Assembly (NCBI GenBank): GCA_964540655.1
Contig: CAZINR010000001.1
Location: 5,067 to 69,066 of the forward strand
Origin: an uncultured archaeon
GTDB taxonomy: Archaea; Altiarchaeota; Altiarchaeia; JAFGQM01
Length of the DNA: 64,000 nt
Direction: 5' to 3'
The notes below the pieces were generated by a model, which did not search any database, was not told the origin of the DNA, and saw only the letters and a program-made list of their open reading frames with translations. A program made the position numbers and the translations under genes. Every line of letters begins with the position of its first letter. The first letter of the stretch is position 1. Positions 13,140 to 47,664 of the stretch are shown here, one piece after another.

Positions 13140-14600
13140 TCACACGTAACCGGTCGCCTTTTTTTCCTCTGAGACCAAATGCCCGCTCACGTGGTCCTTG
13201 GACTTGCCTTTCCAGACGCTGCCGTACTTGTCGACAAGCTGCTGCTCCACGCTGCGCGCGTTCTTTACCGCCTCCTTGATGTGCCTGGCCTCGATGAGGC
13301 TCGCCTCCTCCATCTTGGCCACATCCCCGGCCAGCCGTATGACGCCACCCAGGTCGCGGAGTCTCAATGTCAGGGCGTTCTTCGTGTCGTCAATCTCCTC
13401 GGCCCTCCGCTCACCCTCCTTTATCAGCTCTTTCACGGCCCCGCGCGTGCCGTGGGCTATCTTGGTGTCTATCAGGACCTCCTGGGCGAAGAACTGTGCA
13501 ATCCTCTCCACGTTCTCCTTGGTCTTCGGCATGGTGGTGTCCAGCAGCACCTCGTATCCTGCGCCGAGTATCCTGGACCTGAGCGGTGGCAGTATCCCAC
13601 CCAATTCGTTGATGTTGCAGGCGCCCATGAATATGAAGTCGCATGGCACTCGAGTCACCTTCACCGCGGCTCCCGAGGACGTAGGGTTCATGCCGCTTAT
13701 GGGGAAGTGCTTGTCCTGCATTGCCGTGAGTATGTGGTGCTGGAGGTTCTCCAGCTGCGGCAGCTCGTCTATGAACAGCACCCCCTCATGCGCCTCGTGT
13801 ATGGCCCCCGCGACTACCCTCTCATAGGGCAGAAGCCCCCCGGCCTCCGGCATGCCCCCCCAGGGGTCATGTCTTACATCCCCGAGCAGCTCCGTTTCCG
13901 AGGCCCCGGTCGCCTGCACGAAACTGTTCCTTTTGAGCGGGACCAGAACCTTGCTCTGCTTTATCTTGTCCAGCTTGTTGAGGACCTTGAAGGCGTCGTT
14001 GTCTATTATGCGGACCTTCTTGGAGTCCACGGCCTGGTATATTATTATCTCTTCCTTCCCGCTCTTGTCGGTGCGCGTGACATGCACCTCCTCTTCGGGA
14101 TATTCGCACATCTCCACATTGAACACCTGAGAGAGCAAATCGGAGAACGGAGACCGGCTGACGCTGTCTCCCACCTTGACCTCTTTGCATGAAGGGCAGA
14201 TGTCTTCTTCCGCAGAGCTCATCTTCCCGCAGTGAGTGCACCTGAAGCCCAGCCGCTCCGAGACGTCTTCAGGCACTTTCTCAGGTCCTACGACCTTCCC
14301 TTTCGCCTTCTTCTCCATGCTCTTCTGCTTCTTCAGATCGTCGGAATCCCTCACGAAGATGAACGGCCTCTCAGCGTTCTTGGGGTTATGCGCCACAACA
14401 ATCTCCTGCCTGGGTTTCGGGAGATGGTAGGCCAGAGCGCGGGCGATCATGCTCTTCCCTATGCCTGGCGGACCTACAAGAAGGAGATGCCTTTTCTGCT
14501 TTGCCGCGATTCGAGCTATCCCGACCGCCTTGTCCTGGCCGATGACCATGTCCAGGGGGTCCCTGGGAAGCTCTACCTGCGAAGTGTCCTCAAAGTCCAT
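13140..14600 (-). CDS. LonB-like AAA+ ATPase lacking a protease domain, with an inserted zinc ribbon
   Basis: Walker A LLLVGPPGIGKSM, Walker B GVLFIDELPQL, LonB-like sensor segment FIFMGACNINELGGILPPLRSRILGAGYEVLLD and lid LTLRLRDLGGVIRLAGDVA. A CTHCGK...CPSCK Zn-ribbon lies between Walker A and B. No S-K protease domain. Confidence 0.7.
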   Translation of the reverse strand: MDFEDTSQVELPRDPLDMVIGQDKAVGIARIAAKQKRHLLLVGPPGIGKSMIARALAYHLPKPRQEIVVAHNPKNAERPFIFVRDSDDLKKQKSMEKKAKGKVVGPEKVPEDVSERLGFRCTHCGKMSSAEEDICPSCKEVKVGDSVSRSPFSDLLSQVFNVEMCEYPEEEVHVTRTDKSGKEEIIIYQAVDSKKVRIIDNDAFKVLNKLDKIKQSKVLVPLKRNSFVQATGASETELLGDVRHDPWGGMPEAGGLLPYERVVAGAIHEAHEGVLFIDELPQLENLQHHILTAMQDKHFPISGMNPTSSGAAVKVTRVPCDFIFMGACNINELGGILPPLRSRILGAGYEVLLDTTMPKTKENVERIAQFFAQEVLIDTKIAHGTRGAVKELIKEGERRAEEIDDTKNALTLRLRDLGGVIRLAGDVAKMEEASLIEARHIKEAVKNARSVEQQLVDKYGSVWKGKSKDHVSGHLVSEEKKATGYV

Positions 14601-14652
14601 CTGAAAACCCCACAGGTAATTATCCTGTGGTCTAAGGAAAACCTTTAGGCCT

Positions 14653-15969
14653 TCAGAACTTCGTGACTATTATCTTGTCCTTCGGAGCTTTGAGATTACC
14701 GGCAGTCGTTATGCCCACCAGATATTTGCAGCCCTTGGCCAGCTCAAGTATCTCGTTGGTTATTATGTCATCGATTACCAGCGCATTGGCCTTCTTCAGG
14801 TCCTTTTCCTTCTTGAGGGCGTCCAGGCTGACCTTCTTGATGTCCTTGAACTTGTCGTCAAGCAGAAGCGCCTCGTTCTTTATGTCGCTCAGCTTCTCGA
14901 GCAGCATGCCGGATTCCGAAGGCTTTTTGGCTTCCTCCGCGCTCCCGGAAGCTGAGCTGCCCCGCGAGGGCCTGCTTCTCGAAGGCCGGTCCTTCTCGGA
15001 TGAGCGGCTGCTCCTCTTCCTCGAGCTGTCCCGGCTGCTCCTCTTCCTCGAGCTGCTCTTGGACCTGGACGAGCTCTTCCTGTCGGAGCGCTCCTTGCGC
15101 GAGTCCCGGTCTGAAGAGGGCGGCTTACTCGAACCGCCGCCTTCCATCTCCTTGAAGACCTCATCGGCCGGCTTCTTCCTTCGCAGGGCCATTATCACAT
15201 CCTTCCTGCTAAGGCCCTCGACTTCACGCCCGGGCGGCGCCTTGGCGATGCTCTCGATTTTAATCCCGGCATTCCTCAGGGATTTGAGTATCAACTCTCC
15301 GCCGCGGTCTCCGTCAACGAATGCCGTGACCGACTTGCCCCTTGCCACATCCGTTATCTCGTTCGGTATCTTTATTCCGCCCACGGCCACCCCGTTCTTT
15401 ATTCCGTTCCTCAGGAGGTTCAGAACGTCGGCTCTGCCCTCCACGATTATTATGTTGTCGCTGCTCTCCACAGCAGGACCGGCGTCCAAGCCCTTCACTG
15501 TGGTTATGTGGCCTCCGCGTATATCCTCCCTCAGCTCCTCGCTTATCTCCTTGGCGTCCGGGAGTTCGGTCGACATGAAGGTCTTCAGTATCTCCCTCGC
15601 CCGGTCGACTATGTCCTTCCTTTTTTCCTCTCTGACGTCCTCAACGAGGCTTATCTTGAACGTGGCATCGCAAGGGCCTATCCTGCTTATGGTCTCCACA
15701 GCGGCTGCGATTATGGATGTCGCAACCATGTCAAGGCTGGAAGGTATGGTCACTTTGACCTGGGTTTTGCCCCCTTTGCCCTTCAGGGTGGCATCTATCC
15801 TGCCTATCCTGCCGGACTTCTGCAATTCTCTCAAATCCAAATCTTCCCCTAAAAGCCCCTCGGTCTGTCCGAATATAGCCCCGATAAGGTCGGGCTTCTC
15901 GACAAGTCCGTTGGCTTCCGCTTCAGCGTGTATTACGTATTTTATTATATCCACAGGTGCTTTGCTCAT
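14653..15969 (-). CDS. dnaG: Archaeal DnaG primase (Toprim), with Ser/Arg-rich low-complexity insertion
   Basis: N-terminus MSKAPVDIIKYVIHAEAEANGLVEKPDLIGAIFGQTEGLLGEDLDLRELQKSGRIGRID is the archaeal DnaG signature; Toprim region IIIVEGRADV. Confidence 0.85.
   Translation of the reverse strand: MSKAPVDIIKYVIHAEAEANGLVEKPDLIGAIFGQTEGLLGEDLDLRELQKSGRIGRIDATLKGKGGKTQVKVTIPSSLDMVATSIIAAAVETISRIGPCDATFKISLVEDVREEKRKDIVDRAREILKTFMSTELPDAKEISEELREDIRGGHITTVKGLDAGPAVESSDNIIIVEGRADVLNLLRNGIKNGVAVGGIKIPNEITDVARGKSVTAFVDGDRGGELILKSLRNAGIKIESIAKAPPGREVEGLSRKDVIMALRRKKPADEVFKEMEGGGSSKPPSSDRDSRKERSDRKSSSRSKSSSRKRSSRDSSRKRSSRSSEKDRPSRSRPSRGSSASGSAEEAKKPSESGMLLEKLSDIKNEALLLDDKFKDIKKVSLDALKKEKDLKKANALVIDDIITNEILELAKGCKYLVGITTAGNLKAPKDKIIVTKF
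15006..15056. repeat. Tandem 27-bp direct repeat (2 copies) inside dnaG encoding an SR-rich stretch
   Basis: cggctgctcctcttcctcgagctg occurs at 15006-15029 and 15033-15056 (plus-strand text); encodes SSRKRSSRDSS/SRKRSSRSS. Confidence 0.5.
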
Positions 15970-16536: not shown

Positions 16537-16932
16537 ATGAATAAAATCATCGCTGCGTTTATCATATTCTTAATCATCATAGCTTTGCTTGTTCTACTCA
16601 TCCCGACCCCTTTAAATAACAAAGATGCAGTGGCCTTTACTATGAAAGACGTATCTGGCAATAAGACGATAATGTCCAAACTCCCATTAGATGCTGCATC
16701 GGCAAGGAGTGTAGCAGAAGAGGTCATAACCGTGATGGATCAGCCAGATTATAGGTGGGAATGCTTGCTTTTTGATTCCGCAGAAAAAAGAGTTGATGCA
16801 CGAAACGGGAAGGAATTTTGGTCAGTCGGGTTTAGATGTAACGATGAATGTAACACTAAGTTTATTAATTGTGCGGCAGCAGTAATGATTGAAGAAAAAA
16901 CTCGCGAAGTGTCAGTCGCCTTTCCAGACTGA
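16537..16932 (+). CDS. Signal-anchored secreted protein, hypothetical; AT-rich, probably horizontally acquired
   Basis: 131 aa; N-terminal hydrophobic helix (IIAAFIIFLIIIALLVLLI), six Cys in the C-terminal half; local GC about 40% versus about 58% background. Confidence 0.5.
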   Translation: MNKIIAAFIIFLIIIALLVLLIPTPLNNKDAVAFTMKDVSGNKTIMSKLPLDAASARSVAEEVITVMDQPDYRWECLLFDSAEKRVDARNGKEFWSVGFRCNDECNTKFINCAAAVMIEEKTREVSVAFPD

Positions 16933-34889: not shown

Positions 34890-35363
34890 TCAGAATTTTA
34901 CAAAACGTGATTCCTTCGTATCTTTCTTAGTGTGCTCTGGATCAAAAACATGATTATCTATGCAAATGTAAACTCCTGGATTCAGACTCTTAACCTTTGA
35001 TATTGAATATCTCAAATTCTTAGGAGCATCGGAATTTTCATTCACGAGTGGCTGGAAAGAGCCTGTAAGTACGGCAGTCTTATCAGAACCGAGTCGCTGT
35101 TTTAGAAAACTTCCCGTCTTCGCTATCGTGTACGTGCCGTGTGTTATTATGACTTCGTCGTGTTCAGACTCTTCGATAATCTTCAGGATTTTATCCAAAT
35201 CGTGTTGGGTAATATTCCTACTATCCTTCATACAGACAATTTTGAAATCAGCATCTATGTCCTCTTCCTTAATGAAATTTGGTATATTAGATTCTTTGCC
35301 ACATACTAATCCATTACATGAATCTATGGTTCCGCCCGTAATTATAAACAGAATTCTACCCAT
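34890..35363 (-). CDS. Asparaginase N-terminal-domain-like small protein; AT-rich, probably foreign
   Basis: MGRILFIITGGTIDS resembles the asparaginase/GatD threonine-nucleophile motif (TGGTIAG); only 157 aa; gene GC about 38%. Confidence 0.4.
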   Translation of the reverse strand: MGRILFIITGGTIDSCNGLVCGKESNIPNFIKEEDIDADFKIVCMKDSRNITQHDLDKILKIIEESEHDEVIITHGTYTIAKTGSFLKQRLGSDKTAVLTGSFQPLVNENSDAPKNLRYSISKVKSLNPGVYICIDNHVFDPEHTKKDTKESRFVKF

Positions 35364-44235: not shown

Positions 44236-47200
44236 ATGACGCAGCTCATCATCGCCGAGAAGCCGAGCGTGGCAGGCAAGATAGCCAACGCCATAGGCCG
44301 CGCGCACAAGAAGAGCCGCAACGGAGCGCCCTACTACGAGGTGGATGCCCCCGACGGCAAGGCGATAGTCGCCCCCGCGGTCGGGCATGTCTACACGTTA
44401 CAGGAGACGCAAAACAAGAAGTGGAACCTTGAGTATCCGGTCTTCGACATCCAGTGGGTGCCCATCTACCAGGCGGAGAAGGGCGCTTCATACACGAAAT
44501 CCTATGTCAGCAACATCAAAGAGCTGTGCAAGGAGGCCGACTCTTATGTCAACGCGTGCGACTATGATGTCGAGGGCAGCGTTATCGGATACAATGTCCT
44601 CAAGCACGCCTGCGGCGCAGACCCGGAGAAAGACAAGATTAAACGAATGCACTTCTCGACCGTGACCACGCCCGACCTGGTCAGGGCCTACAACGAGATG
44701 GAGGAGTTCGACGACGGCCAGACCCAGGCCGGCCTGACCCGCCATGTCCTGGACTGGTACTACGGCATAAACCTCTCCCGCGCGCTCATCTCCGCCCTGC
44801 GCTCCACCCGCACCAGGGGGACCCTGAGCATAGGCAGGGTGCAGGGCCCCGCGCTGAAGCTGATAGTCGACAAGGAGCGCGAGATAAGGGCTTTCGTGCC
44901 AGAGCCGTATTGGGTGATAAGCGCTCTCCTAAACAAGGACAAGGATTTTGAGGCCGTCCATGTCAAGGAGAAGTTCGAGAAAGAGGAAGAGGCCAAGGCA
45001 GCGTATGAGAAGGTCAAGGGGCAGAAGACCGGCACGGTCAAGAGCGTCGACCGGAAGAAATACAAGCAGCCTCCTCCCAACCCCTTCGATCTGACGTCGC
45101 TGCAGGTGGAGGCACACCGCCATCACCGCATAGCTCCCAAGCAGACTCTGGAGATTGGCCAGACCCTATACGAGAGAGGATACATCTCATATCCGAGGAC
45201 ATCCTCGCAGCAGCTGCCGCCGAGCATCGGTTACAAAAAGATACTGGACAAGATAGCGCAGCAGTCCGAATACTCCGAGGGCGCGGAAAAACTGCTCTCC
45301 AAGCCTTCGCTGCGGCCGAACAACGGCAAGAAGAAGGACCCGGCGCACCCGGCCATCTATCCGACCGGCGAGGTCCCGAAGGGAATCGCCGACCGTGAGA
45401 AGAGGGTCTACGACTTAATAGTCCGCAGGTTCATGGCCACCTTCGGAGAGTGGGCGGTGAGGGAGAGCATGAAGGCGATAATCGACATCAACACCGAAGA
45501 CTTCAAGGCCGAGGGCAAGCGCACCGTGGAGAAGAACTGGCACGAGCTCTACGGCAAGTACGCCAAGTTCGACGAGGTGATGCTGCCCGATTTGAAGGAG
45601 GGCGAATCCGTAGACATCAAGAAGCTCGGACTCGACAAGAAGATGACCCAGCCGCCGAAGCGCTACACCGAGTCGTCCATAATCAGCGAGCTGGAGAAGA
45701 GGAACCTGGGCACAAAGTGCGCAGAGTATGGCACGGAAATCTATATCAAAAGAAACGGCAAAATTAGTAAGGTCCCCATAGGAAAGTTTGTTGATAAACA
45801 ACTTAAATCGGGCCTGAACTCAAAAGAAATAAAAAAAGGGACCCATACCCTATGCTGCGATATTAAAAATCATAGAATGGTATGGAAACCCATCAGTTCA
45901 GTCAGTAGGAGACCTGTTGAGGAGAATGAGCTCAAAGAAGTAATGGCAGCAGGGTCCTCAATAAAACTTACAAATGAGCATCCCGTTGCAATCTTAAAGG
46001 AGAATGCGATTAAATTCAAAGAAGTAAAAAAACTTAAGATAGGGGATAACTTAATTCGGGCAAGACCTATACGATGGGATCCTAAATCCAGAGTAATCGC
46101 AAATATGATTGGCGATGGAAGCATCTCTATAAGAAAAGATATCCATGAAAAGACCCCGGACATGCGTTATCACAATAAAGAGCTGGCCCTTATCGACGTT
46201 TTTTCATCCGCTGCCAATATTGCCTTTTGCGCCGGGGCCATTAAGAGAAAGGCTTCAAGAGGTAGATACTATGTTGCCTTGCCCTTGGCTGCAGGCAGAA
46301 AAATTCTGCAACAGTATCCGGAAATTGAAAAAGGGGAGTTTCCTGAGTCGATTGATAAACCTACTGCAATAGGAGCCTTTTTTGATGACGAAGGTTGTGT
46401 TTATTTAGAGCAAATAAAAGAATATGGCAACATTCAGTCCTCGGGGGTGCCCAAGATAAAGATGGCACAAAAGATCAGAGGACCCCTGGACCAGATTTCC
46501 CTATGGTTGCGTGATTTGGGCATATCATCTAAGGTTTACAAAACCAATGTTAATTATCGTGGCTCTAAACGGGAATGCTATGAGCTATGGGTGCGCGGCA
46601 GGAAGAATCTTGAAAGATTTATGCGGAACATCCCCTTTTTCCATCCAAGAAAGTTTGAGAAACTTATGCTCGGCCTGTCCAGATATCCATCGGTTTTGAA
46701 GAAAGCCCGGATTTACAGGAATATAGATCTACAGGGCAACACACATGACAGCGATTTAAGCAAATCTCTGGGATTATCCCTAACTCACACTAGGGCCTTA
46801 TGCCGGGAATTGGAAGAAGACGGCCTAATAAAAATAACGAGAAAGCCAAATCTTAAGAGGCGAAGCGCCAATAACTCACTATGCCTTACTGTCTCTTTAC
46901 CTTACTTTGACACCTTCTATTCAAGACTTGGCGATATTTGTCTAAGTTCGAAAATGACTGCGGTCCCAGTATCCGGAATAAGGCCGGCATGGTCTACCCA
47001 TAAATTTGTGTACGATATAACCGTGGATTCGGAAACTCCAAATTACTTTGCGGGACATTGTGGCCTTCTAATACACAACTCCACTCGCGCGACCGTCATA
47101 GACACGCTGTTCAAGCGCAATTACATAATCGGCAAGTCCATAGAGGCGACCGACCTGGGGGTAAAGACGGTCGAGACCCTGGAGAAGCACAGCCCGGAGA

Positions 47201-47664
47201 TTCTGGATGAGGAGCTGACCCGCAGTTTCGAGGAGGAGATGGACGAGCTGATGGGGGGGAAGAAGACTGGCGAGGAGGTTGAAGCCAAGAACCGACACGT
47301 CTTGCTGAAGGTGCTGGAGAAATTCAAGAAGGAGGAGAAAGAGATAGGCGAAGAGCTGAGGAGCGCTCTCTTCAAGGCACAAGAGGAGAAGGCGGAGAGC
47401 GACGCGCTCGGCAAGTGTCCCGTTTGTAAAGAGGGATTGCTCGTCATCAGGAGGAACCCCAAGACCAAGAAGCGCTTCCTGGGCTGCAGCAACTATCCAA
47501 AATGCACCGAGACGCAGCCCCTCCCGCAGAAGGGATCTGTCAAGCCGGCCAAGAAGGACTGCCCGACCTGCGGCTACCCGATGGCCAACGTCTGGAGCAG
47601 AGGCAAGAAGGCCCCTTGGGTCATATGCACGAACATCAACTGCCCGAGCAAGAAGAAAAAGTAA
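44236..47664 (+). CDS. topA: DNA topoisomerase I (type IA) interrupted by an intein; C-terminal zinc ribbons
   Basis: Toprim N-terminus (LIIAEKPSVAGKIA), active-site GYISYPRTSS, C-terminal CPVCK...CSNYPKC and CPTCG...CTNINC ribbons. Mature protein would be about 688 aa. Confidence 0.85.
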   Translation: MTQLIIAEKPSVAGKIANAIGRAHKKSRNGAPYYEVDAPDGKAIVAPAVGHVYTLQETQNKKWNLEYPVFDIQWVPIYQAEKGASYTKSYVSNIKELCKEADSYVNACDYDVEGSVIGYNVLKHACGADPEKDKIKRMHFSTVTTPDLVRAYNEMEEFDDGQTQAGLTRHVLDWYYGINLSRALISALRSTRTRGTLSIGRVQGPALKLIVDKEREIRAFVPEPYWVISALLNKDKDFEAVHVKEKFEKEEEAKAAYEKVKGQKTGTVKSVDRKKYKQPPPNPFDLTSLQVEAHRHHRIAPKQTLEIGQTLYERGYISYPRTSSQQLPPSIGYKKILDKIAQQSEYSEGAEKLLSKPSLRPNNGKKKDPAHPAIYPTGEVPKGIADREKRVYDLIVRRFMATFGEWAVRESMKAIIDINTEDFKAEGKRTVEKNWHELYGKYAKFDEVMLPDLKEGESVDIKKLGLDKKMTQPPKRYTESSIISELEKRNLGTKCAEYGTEIYIKRNGKISKVPIGKFVDKQLKSGLNSKEIKKGTHTLCCDIKNHRMVWKPISSVSRRPVEENELKEVMAAGSSIKLTNEHPVAILKENAIKFKEVKKLKIGDNLIRARPIRWDPKSRVIANMIGDGSISIRKDIHEKTPDMRYHNKELALIDVFSSAANIAFCAGAIKRKASRGRYYVALPLAAGRKILQQYPEIEKGEFPESIDKPTAIGAFFDDEGCVYLEQIKEYGNIQSSGVPKIKMAQKIRGPLDQISLWLRDLGISSKVYKTNVNYRGSKRECYELWVRGRKNLERFMRNIPFFHPRKFEKLMLGLSRYPSVLKKARIYRNIDLQGNTHDSDLSKSLGLSLTHTRALCRELEEDGLIKITRKPNLKRRSANNSLCLTVSLPYFDTFYSRLGDICLSSKMTAVPVSGIRPAWSTHKFVYDITVDSETPNYFAGHCGLLIHNSTRATVIDTLFKRNYIIGKSIEATDLGVKTVETLEKHSPEILDEELTRSFEEEMDELMGGKKTGEEVEAKNRHVLLKVLEKFKKEEKEIGEELRSALFKAQEEKAESDALGKCPVCKEGLLVIRRNPKTKKRFLGCSNYPKCTETQPLPQKGSVKPAKKDCPTCGYPMANVWSRGKKAPWVICTNINCPSKKKK
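45718..47079 (+). mobile_element. Intein (454 aa) with LAGLIDADG homing-endonuclease domain in topA
   Basis: Begins with Cys after LGTK and ends HN before STRATVI. Block B TNEHP, LAGLIDADG-like VIANMIGDGSI and AIGAFFDDEGCVY, terminal VYDITVDS...GLLIHN. AT-rich internal segment. Removal restores an LGTK-STRATVI motif like E. coli GIGRPSTYASI. Confidence 0.8.

Follow-up and report, generated by a model that had tools for sequence, protein, structure and literature searches.

The topA gene of the analysed stretch of DNA (64 kb, referred to here as the window) lies on the forward strand at 44236..47664 and encodes a 1142-aa precursor, an archaeal type IA DNA topoisomerase carrying an intein. The precursor ORF matches the archaeal TopA model TIGR01057 (topA_arch, NCBIfam) with 722 bits at a cut-off of 458. 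In Pfam, it matches Topoisom_bac (389 bits) in two stretches that flank an insert, as well as Toprim and Zn_ribbon_Top1. The insert, at 45718..47079 on the same strand, is the 454-aa intein, which runs in frame from Cys1 to Asn454 over codons 495-948. It starts with CAEYG and ends with LLIHN, and STRATVIDTL comes next. An earlier note made from the sequence had proposed a 454-aa intein in this 1142-aa ORF, and its coordinates are confirmed to the base; the initial Cys, the final His-Asn and the following Ser that it had described can be read in the translation.

The insert separates two exteins that together make up a complete topoisomerase. The N-extein (44236..45717, + strand; aa 1-494) contains Toprim and most of the topoisomerase core, including the candidate active-site Tyr319 (YPRT), and ends in ELEKRNLGTK. 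The C-extein (47080..47664, + strand; 194 aa plus stop) provides the rest of the core and two zinc ribbons, and its first codon is the Ser codon TCC of the +1 extein nucleophile (47080..47082, + strand). Removal of the insert leaves a 688-aa TopA that is collinear with the 687-689-aa orthologues encoded at syntenic loci and is 83%, 80% and 77% identical to intein-less orthologues of that length. The best solved relative of the spliced protein is Sulfolobus topoisomerase III (6k8n, E 6e-100). The spliced junction reads ELEKRNLGTK|STRATVIDTL, so that excision does restore the continuous motif, as the earlier note had claimed.

The same note had located the insertion in a GIGRPSTYA-like motif, and alignment agrees with this. 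NLGTK|STRA aligns on G490-IGRPSTYA-498 of E. coli K-12 TopA, with the intein point at the equivalents of P494/S495. In the 118 intein-less homologues retrieved, the motif [N/G]LGTK[A/S]TRA is near-invariant, and the insert thus interrupts one of the most conserved motifs of TopA. A literature search on what the individual residues of the GRPSTYA motif do found nothing usable. In annotation, the 1142-aa "topoisomerase" ought to be entered as a 688-aa TopA and a 454-aa intein.

Within the intein, the N-terminal splicing (Hint) region (45718..46077, + strand; intein aa 1-120) carries Cys1 and block B, L-T85-N-E-H88-P (45967-45984, + strand; intein 84-89), and matches the NCBIfam intein model TIGR01445 (intein_Nterm) with 30.1 bits against a cut-off of 24.5. 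The C-terminal splicing region (46945..47079, + strand) carries block F, VYD433ITVDSETPNYFAG (47008-47055, + strand; from intein residue 431 onward), and block G, LLIH453-N454 (47065-47079, + strand), which forms the C-terminal end of the intein; it matches TIGR01443 (intein_Cterm, NCBIfam) with 18.4 bits against a cut-off of 15.6. While these two NCBIfam intein models pass their cut-offs, the Pfam model Intein_splicing (PF14890) scores 31.7 bits, under its cut-off of 35.8. The residues of a class 1 intein are all present: Cys1, T85, H88, D433, H453, N454 and Ser+1.

The splicing regions enclose a LAGLIDADG homing-endonuclease domain (46078..46677, + strand; intein aa 121-320), which matches PF14528 (LAGLIDADG_3) with 36.4 bits against a cut-off of 22.5 (E 6e-9). 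Its motif 1, KSRVIANMIGDGSIS, is found at 46084-46128 (+ strand; intein 123-137) with the acidic residue D133, and its motif 2, TAIGAFFDDEGCVY, at 46363-46404 (+ strand; intein 216-229) with the acidic residue E225. Both helices close with the acidic residue followed by Gly (MIGD133G and FDDE225G). A winged-helix DNA-binding domain (46687..46893, + strand; intein aa 324-392) follows the endonuclease, ahead of the C-terminal splicing region, and matches the Pfam model HTH_24 with 21.9 bits, exactly at its cut-off; a literature search on winged-helix domains in inteins found nothing usable. The motifs quoted in the earlier note (LTNEHP, IANMIGDGSI, FFDDEGCVY and VYDITVDS...HN) were all recovered, at intein positions 84-89, within 123-137, within 216-229 and at 431-454. 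Judged on sequence, the intein and LAGLIDADG matches (LAGLIDADG_3, TIGR01445, TIGR01443 and the TFIIB mini-inteins described below) are far beyond chance.

A structural model of the intein was generated with AlphaFold (AF2) from a 15-sequence alignment of TopA inteins (mean pLDDT 89.9, pTM 0.87). In this model, residues 1-115 and 413-453 form a beta-rich Hint domain, and the intein is predicted to have the Hint fold. The endonuclease is modelled as two halves of alpha-beta-beta-alpha-beta-beta-alpha topology; its LAGLIDADG helices span 122-132 and 214-225, and a strand follows each. The winged helix is modelled as helix 324-339, strand 341-343, helices 344-351 and 355-367, and strands 371-376 and 387-392. 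A Foldseek search of the PDB with the model placed full-size inteins at the top, namely PI-PfuI (E 1.5e-19), TliVMA, PI-TkoII and PI-SceI; mini-inteins came next, matching the Hint part with rmsd of 2.2-3.2 A, and I-Tsp061I and I-DmoI matched the endonuclease part. With the PF14528 match and intact catalytic residues, these folds bear out the description of the insert as a full-size LAGLIDADG intein in the earlier note.

It could still be argued that the insert does not splice and is retained in the mature enzyme as a lineage-specific insertion domain of TopA, a reading for which nothing specific speaks apart from the sub-threshold Pfam Intein_splicing score. We consider it hardly credible. 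All splicing blocks are present and are invariant across distant homologues, the Hint fold is recovered in the model, the insert splits a highly conserved TopA motif, and its composition is foreign, with sharp boundaries. The earlier note had named a non-splicing insertion lacking intein blocks as the alternative to its proposal; such an insertion is excluded, since the blocks are invariant in 13-15 TopA inteins and orthologues without the intein occur at syntenic loci.

The insert is therefore treated here as an intein, very probably of class 1, that combines a two-motif LAGLIDADG endonuclease with an accessory winged helix in an archaeal topA and that is predicted to splice and to cleave DNA. 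Under this reading, topA would be translated as the 1142-aa precursor, and Cys1 would attack the K494-C495 peptide bond in an N-S acyl shift that yields a thioester. The N-extein would then move to the Ser+1 side chain by transesterification, Asn454 would cyclise with the help of His453 and release the intein, and an O-N shift would produce a normal K-S peptide bond, giving the 688-aa TopA with its NLGTK-STRA motif restored. The freed 454-aa intein would act as a monomeric LAGLIDADG endonuclease aided by the winged helix. Its target would be uninterrupted topA across the junction, approximately AACCTCGGAACAAAA|GCCACGCGCGCC in empty alleles, where the intein would cut. Homologous repair of the double-strand break from an occupied copy would carry over both the intein and the Ser codon next to it. 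Splicing, cleavage and target are all predictions from the sequence.

Splicing might also be conditional, gated for example by redox through a putative disulfide of Cys1, such that TopA responds to conditions. The intein of the window has about 10 Cys (2.2% of its 454 aa), Cys is the majority residue at position 46 of the TopA-intein alignment, and conditional splicing is reported for archaeal replication and repair inteins (PMC11409957). Position 46 is not invariant, however, and the present data fit ordinary constitutive splicing equally, which makes a gated intein quite improbable.

To place the intein among its relatives, an exhaustive phmmer search was run against 1.84 billion representatives, and it returned 87 matches at E<1e-3, 18 of them at E<1e-10. 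Of the latter, 12 were inspected and every one is a TopA precursor, as is each of the top 11, and in the best matches the Topoisom_bac (PF01131) alignment breaks at profile position 341/342. All 17 further representatives of TopA-intein clusters that were inspected have the common junction G-T-K/R|C...N|S-T-R. Inteins at this same site occur in Halorutilus salinus and Haladaptatus sp. (Halobacteria), in an Aenigmatarchaeota MAG and in a Micrarchaeota MAG, so that one conserved TopA insertion site is in use across very distant archaea. The exhaustive search was needed because word-indexed protein searches were weak: the intein alone gave no match, and a 15-sequence intein profile gave only five. 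A metagenome scan with the intein returned no matches, and one with a 3-sequence profile returned only distant LAGLIDADG relatives at 38% identity or below and no further close alleles.

Cys1 and Ser+1 occur in all 20 TopA inteins examined. In two alignments of these inteins, A1 (13 sequences) and A2 (15 sequences), C1, T85, H88, V431, D433, N454 and G226 do not vary, and conservation reaches at least 90% at H453, G132-D133 and D223. All 13 sequences of A1 have E or D at position 225. HTH_24 was matched in 8/15 TopA inteins.

In the longer members of the family, of 505-548 aa, the N-terminal splicing region and the endonuclease are separated by an additional stretch of about 80-90 aa, which comes on top of the winged helix. 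An XRE-type HTH_3 was matched within this stretch in 4/15 aligned TopA inteins (the matches among long inteins include P0124, P0126 and P0133); the window intein is without it. Reverse gyrase was considered as a host of the homologous site and is unsupported, since the candidate, P0130 (1621 aa), is a long TopA and not a reverse gyrase. P0130 has the same-site intein and, upstream of this intein, about 400 aa inserted into the topoisomerase core; its organism is very AT-rich (K/N/I-rich).

TopA inteins are already present in published surveys, and the window intein is thus not a new kind of system. Soucy et al. (2014) reported a topA intein in four Halobacteria, with a Methanotorris igneus relative (PMC4071816), and Novikova et al. 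(2016) listed TopA among the top archaeal intein hosts, with 11 inteins, all from Euryarchaeota (PMC4760082). The case is therefore less unusual than the earlier note implied, TopA being already on record as one of the top intein-bearing archaeal proteins (PMC4760082; PMC4071816). The window intein shares with the known archaeal topA allele the host protein and the GTK|C...HN|STR site, a likeness established with the halobacterial member P0128/P0212. The halobacterial intein is homologous to the window intein (E 2e-16), and Cys1, Ser+1, a LAGLIDADG domain and the winged helix are common to them all. The two are, in contrast, only about 24-29% identical, taken over the matched region and over the whole alignment, and the window intein is the shorter one (454 aa against 505-548 aa) because the extra stretch of about 80-90 aa (including HTH_3) is missing from it. 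Among named organisms, those nearest to the window host by TopA are MAGs of Altiarchaeota, a group not among the Euryarchaeota of the 2016 list. By these comparisons, the window intein is a divergent new member of the known archaeal TopA intein allele with a shorter architecture, and it extends this allele from Euryarchaeota to an uncultured lineage related to Altiarchaeota MAGs.

Two solved systems are closest in other respects. PI-PfuI (the Pyrococcus furiosus RNR intein, 1dq3), the best structural match, likewise has 454 aa and the same domain order as the window intein: Hint, two-motif LAGLIDADG, an additional domain and the C-terminal Hint part. For the splicing domain, the nearest solved sequences are the Methanocaldococcus TFIIB mini-inteins 5o9j and 5o9i (E 6e-12 and 3e-11; rmsd of 2.2 A to the window model over 125 columns). 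These are without an endonuclease and sit in another host protein, whereas the window intein is full-size and sits in TopA.

Close relatives of the intein are few. A search with spliced TopA recovered an identical precursor in NCBI (P0001) and one more 1142-aa precursor (P0022); all other TopA homologues listed, including those at 83-66% identity, are intein-less and 686-751 aa long. Looking up the exact precursor sequence yielded no contig. In GTDB genomes, a scan turned up L006 as the third occupied allele, along with more empty ones (L007-L009). The close intein clade thus has only three members across all collections searched, and the window intein is 33-36% identical to its nearest relatives outside this three-allele clade.

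The intein-less topA alleles of relatives that the earlier note had wished to see compared do exist, and at syntenic loci. Occupied and empty loci have a common downstream order of TopA, an AsnC-type regulator, an aminotransferase, a metallophosphatase and an Lhr helicase, and by this shared order the occupied and empty sites are orthologous. TYW3/TYW2 genes were seen upstream of topA in occupied loci (the window and L001). At L001, an IS1595-family DDE transposase gene (14578-15111, - strand) lies just downstream of the Lhr helicase; none was seen at the corresponding place in the window.

In a neighbour-joining tree of the exteins, the window is sister to the intein-less P0002, followed by the intein-less P0003/L007 and then by the occupied L006, and the occupied P0022 is sister to the intein-less P0021. 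The intein is accordingly distributed sporadically. The +1 codon differs between the two states of the site: it encodes Ser (TCC or TCA) in occupied alleles and Ala (GCC, GCT or GCG) in empty close relatives, and in this close set Ala versus Ser at +1 marks occupancy. One such empty topA allele, L003, reads GAGCTGGAGAAGCGGAACCTCGGAACAAAA|GCCACGCGCGCCAACATAATCGACACGCTC across the site. Overall, Ser is found at +1 in 20/20 occupied but 15/118 empty alleles (Fisher P 5e-15), a bias in keeping with splicing chemistry, which requires a +1 nucleophile, and with co-conversion of the neighbouring codon when the intein homes. The 15 intein-less Ser alleles (P0007, P0013, P0025, P0029 and 11 others, P0007/P0013 being sister taxa) may be scars of past occupancy or sites permissive to invasion. 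The three close occupied alleles and their empty sister alleles form a small natural data set on the homing cycle.

The base composition of the intein is distinct from that of its host gene. Its GC content is 42.1%, compared with 58.6% and 57.2% for the exteins. In the window, GC3 is 42.5% in the intein, 83% in the N-extein and 82.5% in the C-extein; in L006 it is 40% in the intein and 87-88% in the exteins, and in L001 36% and 58-61%. The earlier note had ascribed AT-richness to the centre of the intein; the AT-richness is borne out, but it holds for the whole intein and not for its centre in particular. At the N-junction of the window, GC3 in 25-codon bins falls from 84 to 36, at the C-junction it rises from 40 to 84, and sharp steps are also seen at the junctions in L006 and L001. 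Other genes in the window mostly have GC3 of 70-81%. Together, the empty sister lineages with Ala at +1 and the sharp GC3 steps at both junctions provide evidence of mobility, and the intein appears to be a mobile element.

Divergence among the alleles was used to assess selection. The inteins of the window and L006 share 79% identity and align without indels, with dN 0.120, dS 0.85 and dN/dS 0.14; as dS against L001 is saturated, only this pair gives a usable dN/dS. In the endonuclease domain of the same pair, dN is 0.068, dS 0.90 and dN/dS about 0.075, and the other parts of the intein have dN of 0.13-0.20, above that of the endonuclease. Between the window and L001, intein identity is 69%, here too without indels, and the endonuclease once more has the lowest dN. 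By these rates, the endonuclease domain is under strong purifying selection, and such conservation argues that it was functional over the time sampled. Splicing and homing activity are predicted from conservation and selection.

The exteins of the window and L006 have dN 0.142 and dS 0.76, the latter close to the dS of 0.85 of the intein. This equal divergence suggests co-divergence of intein and host gene; it looks more like vertical co-inheritance than recent homing, and current endonuclease activity is a prediction. The intein might accordingly be splicing-competent with an inactive endonuclease. It would then be a passenger under vertical inheritance, domesticated or in decay, that needs only to excise itself. 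Vertical co-inheritance predicts just such equal divergence of intein and extein as is seen between the window and L006. Dead endonucleases are found in many full-size inteins in the course of the homing cycle, which also favours this reading. Against it, neither acidic LAGLIDADG residue has been lost, and conservation within the intein is highest in the endonuclease. Relaxed selection and deletions would be expected of an endonuclease in decay, and there are no indels over 454 residues in three intein alleles at identities down to 67%. The sister lineages are moreover empty, with Ala at +1. We therefore regard an inactive endonuclease as unlikely and retain the reading of a homing intein.

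The persistence of the AT-rich composition was analysed by polarising synonymous third-position changes with L001 as outgroup. With about one synonymous substitution per site in a background of 83-88% GC3, drift toward host GC would be expected. Counted as AT>GC versus GC>AT, the changes number 17 versus 15 on the window branch and 12 versus 13 on that of L006. Pooled, they are balanced (29 AT>GC versus 28 GC>AT), whereas about 50 of 57 (~88%) would be AT>GC under the host bias (binomial P 2e-11). The result is conservative, because an AT-rich outgroup such as L001 pushes the count toward AT>GC. It raises the possibility, which we hold to be a doubtful one, that the intein evolves outside the substitution regime of its host, through re-seeding from an unseen AT-rich reservoir of TopA inteins or through an intein-specific constraint that keeps it AT-rich. 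Both hosts may have been invaded recently, each from diverged AT-rich donors, which fits sister lineages that are empty and carry Ala; or the AT-richness of the intein may be maintained in some way. Continual re-seeding of GC-rich hosts, if true, would turn the intein into a live tracer with which to follow gene flow between uncultured archaea.

No low-GC island in the 64-kb window is longer than the intein. An Rfam scan of the entire window at gathering thresholds found no RNA family. A 157-aa ORF at 34890-35363 (- strand), whose only match is to the N-terminal domain of asparaginase (PF00710, 79 bits), is as foreign in composition as the intein, with GC of 37% and GC3 of 36% between flanking genes of GC3 ~81%. 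A third low-GC island is a 131-aa ORF at 16537-16932 (+ strand), which has no match in Pfam and encodes an N-terminal hydrophobic helix, with GC of 41% and GC3 of 40%.
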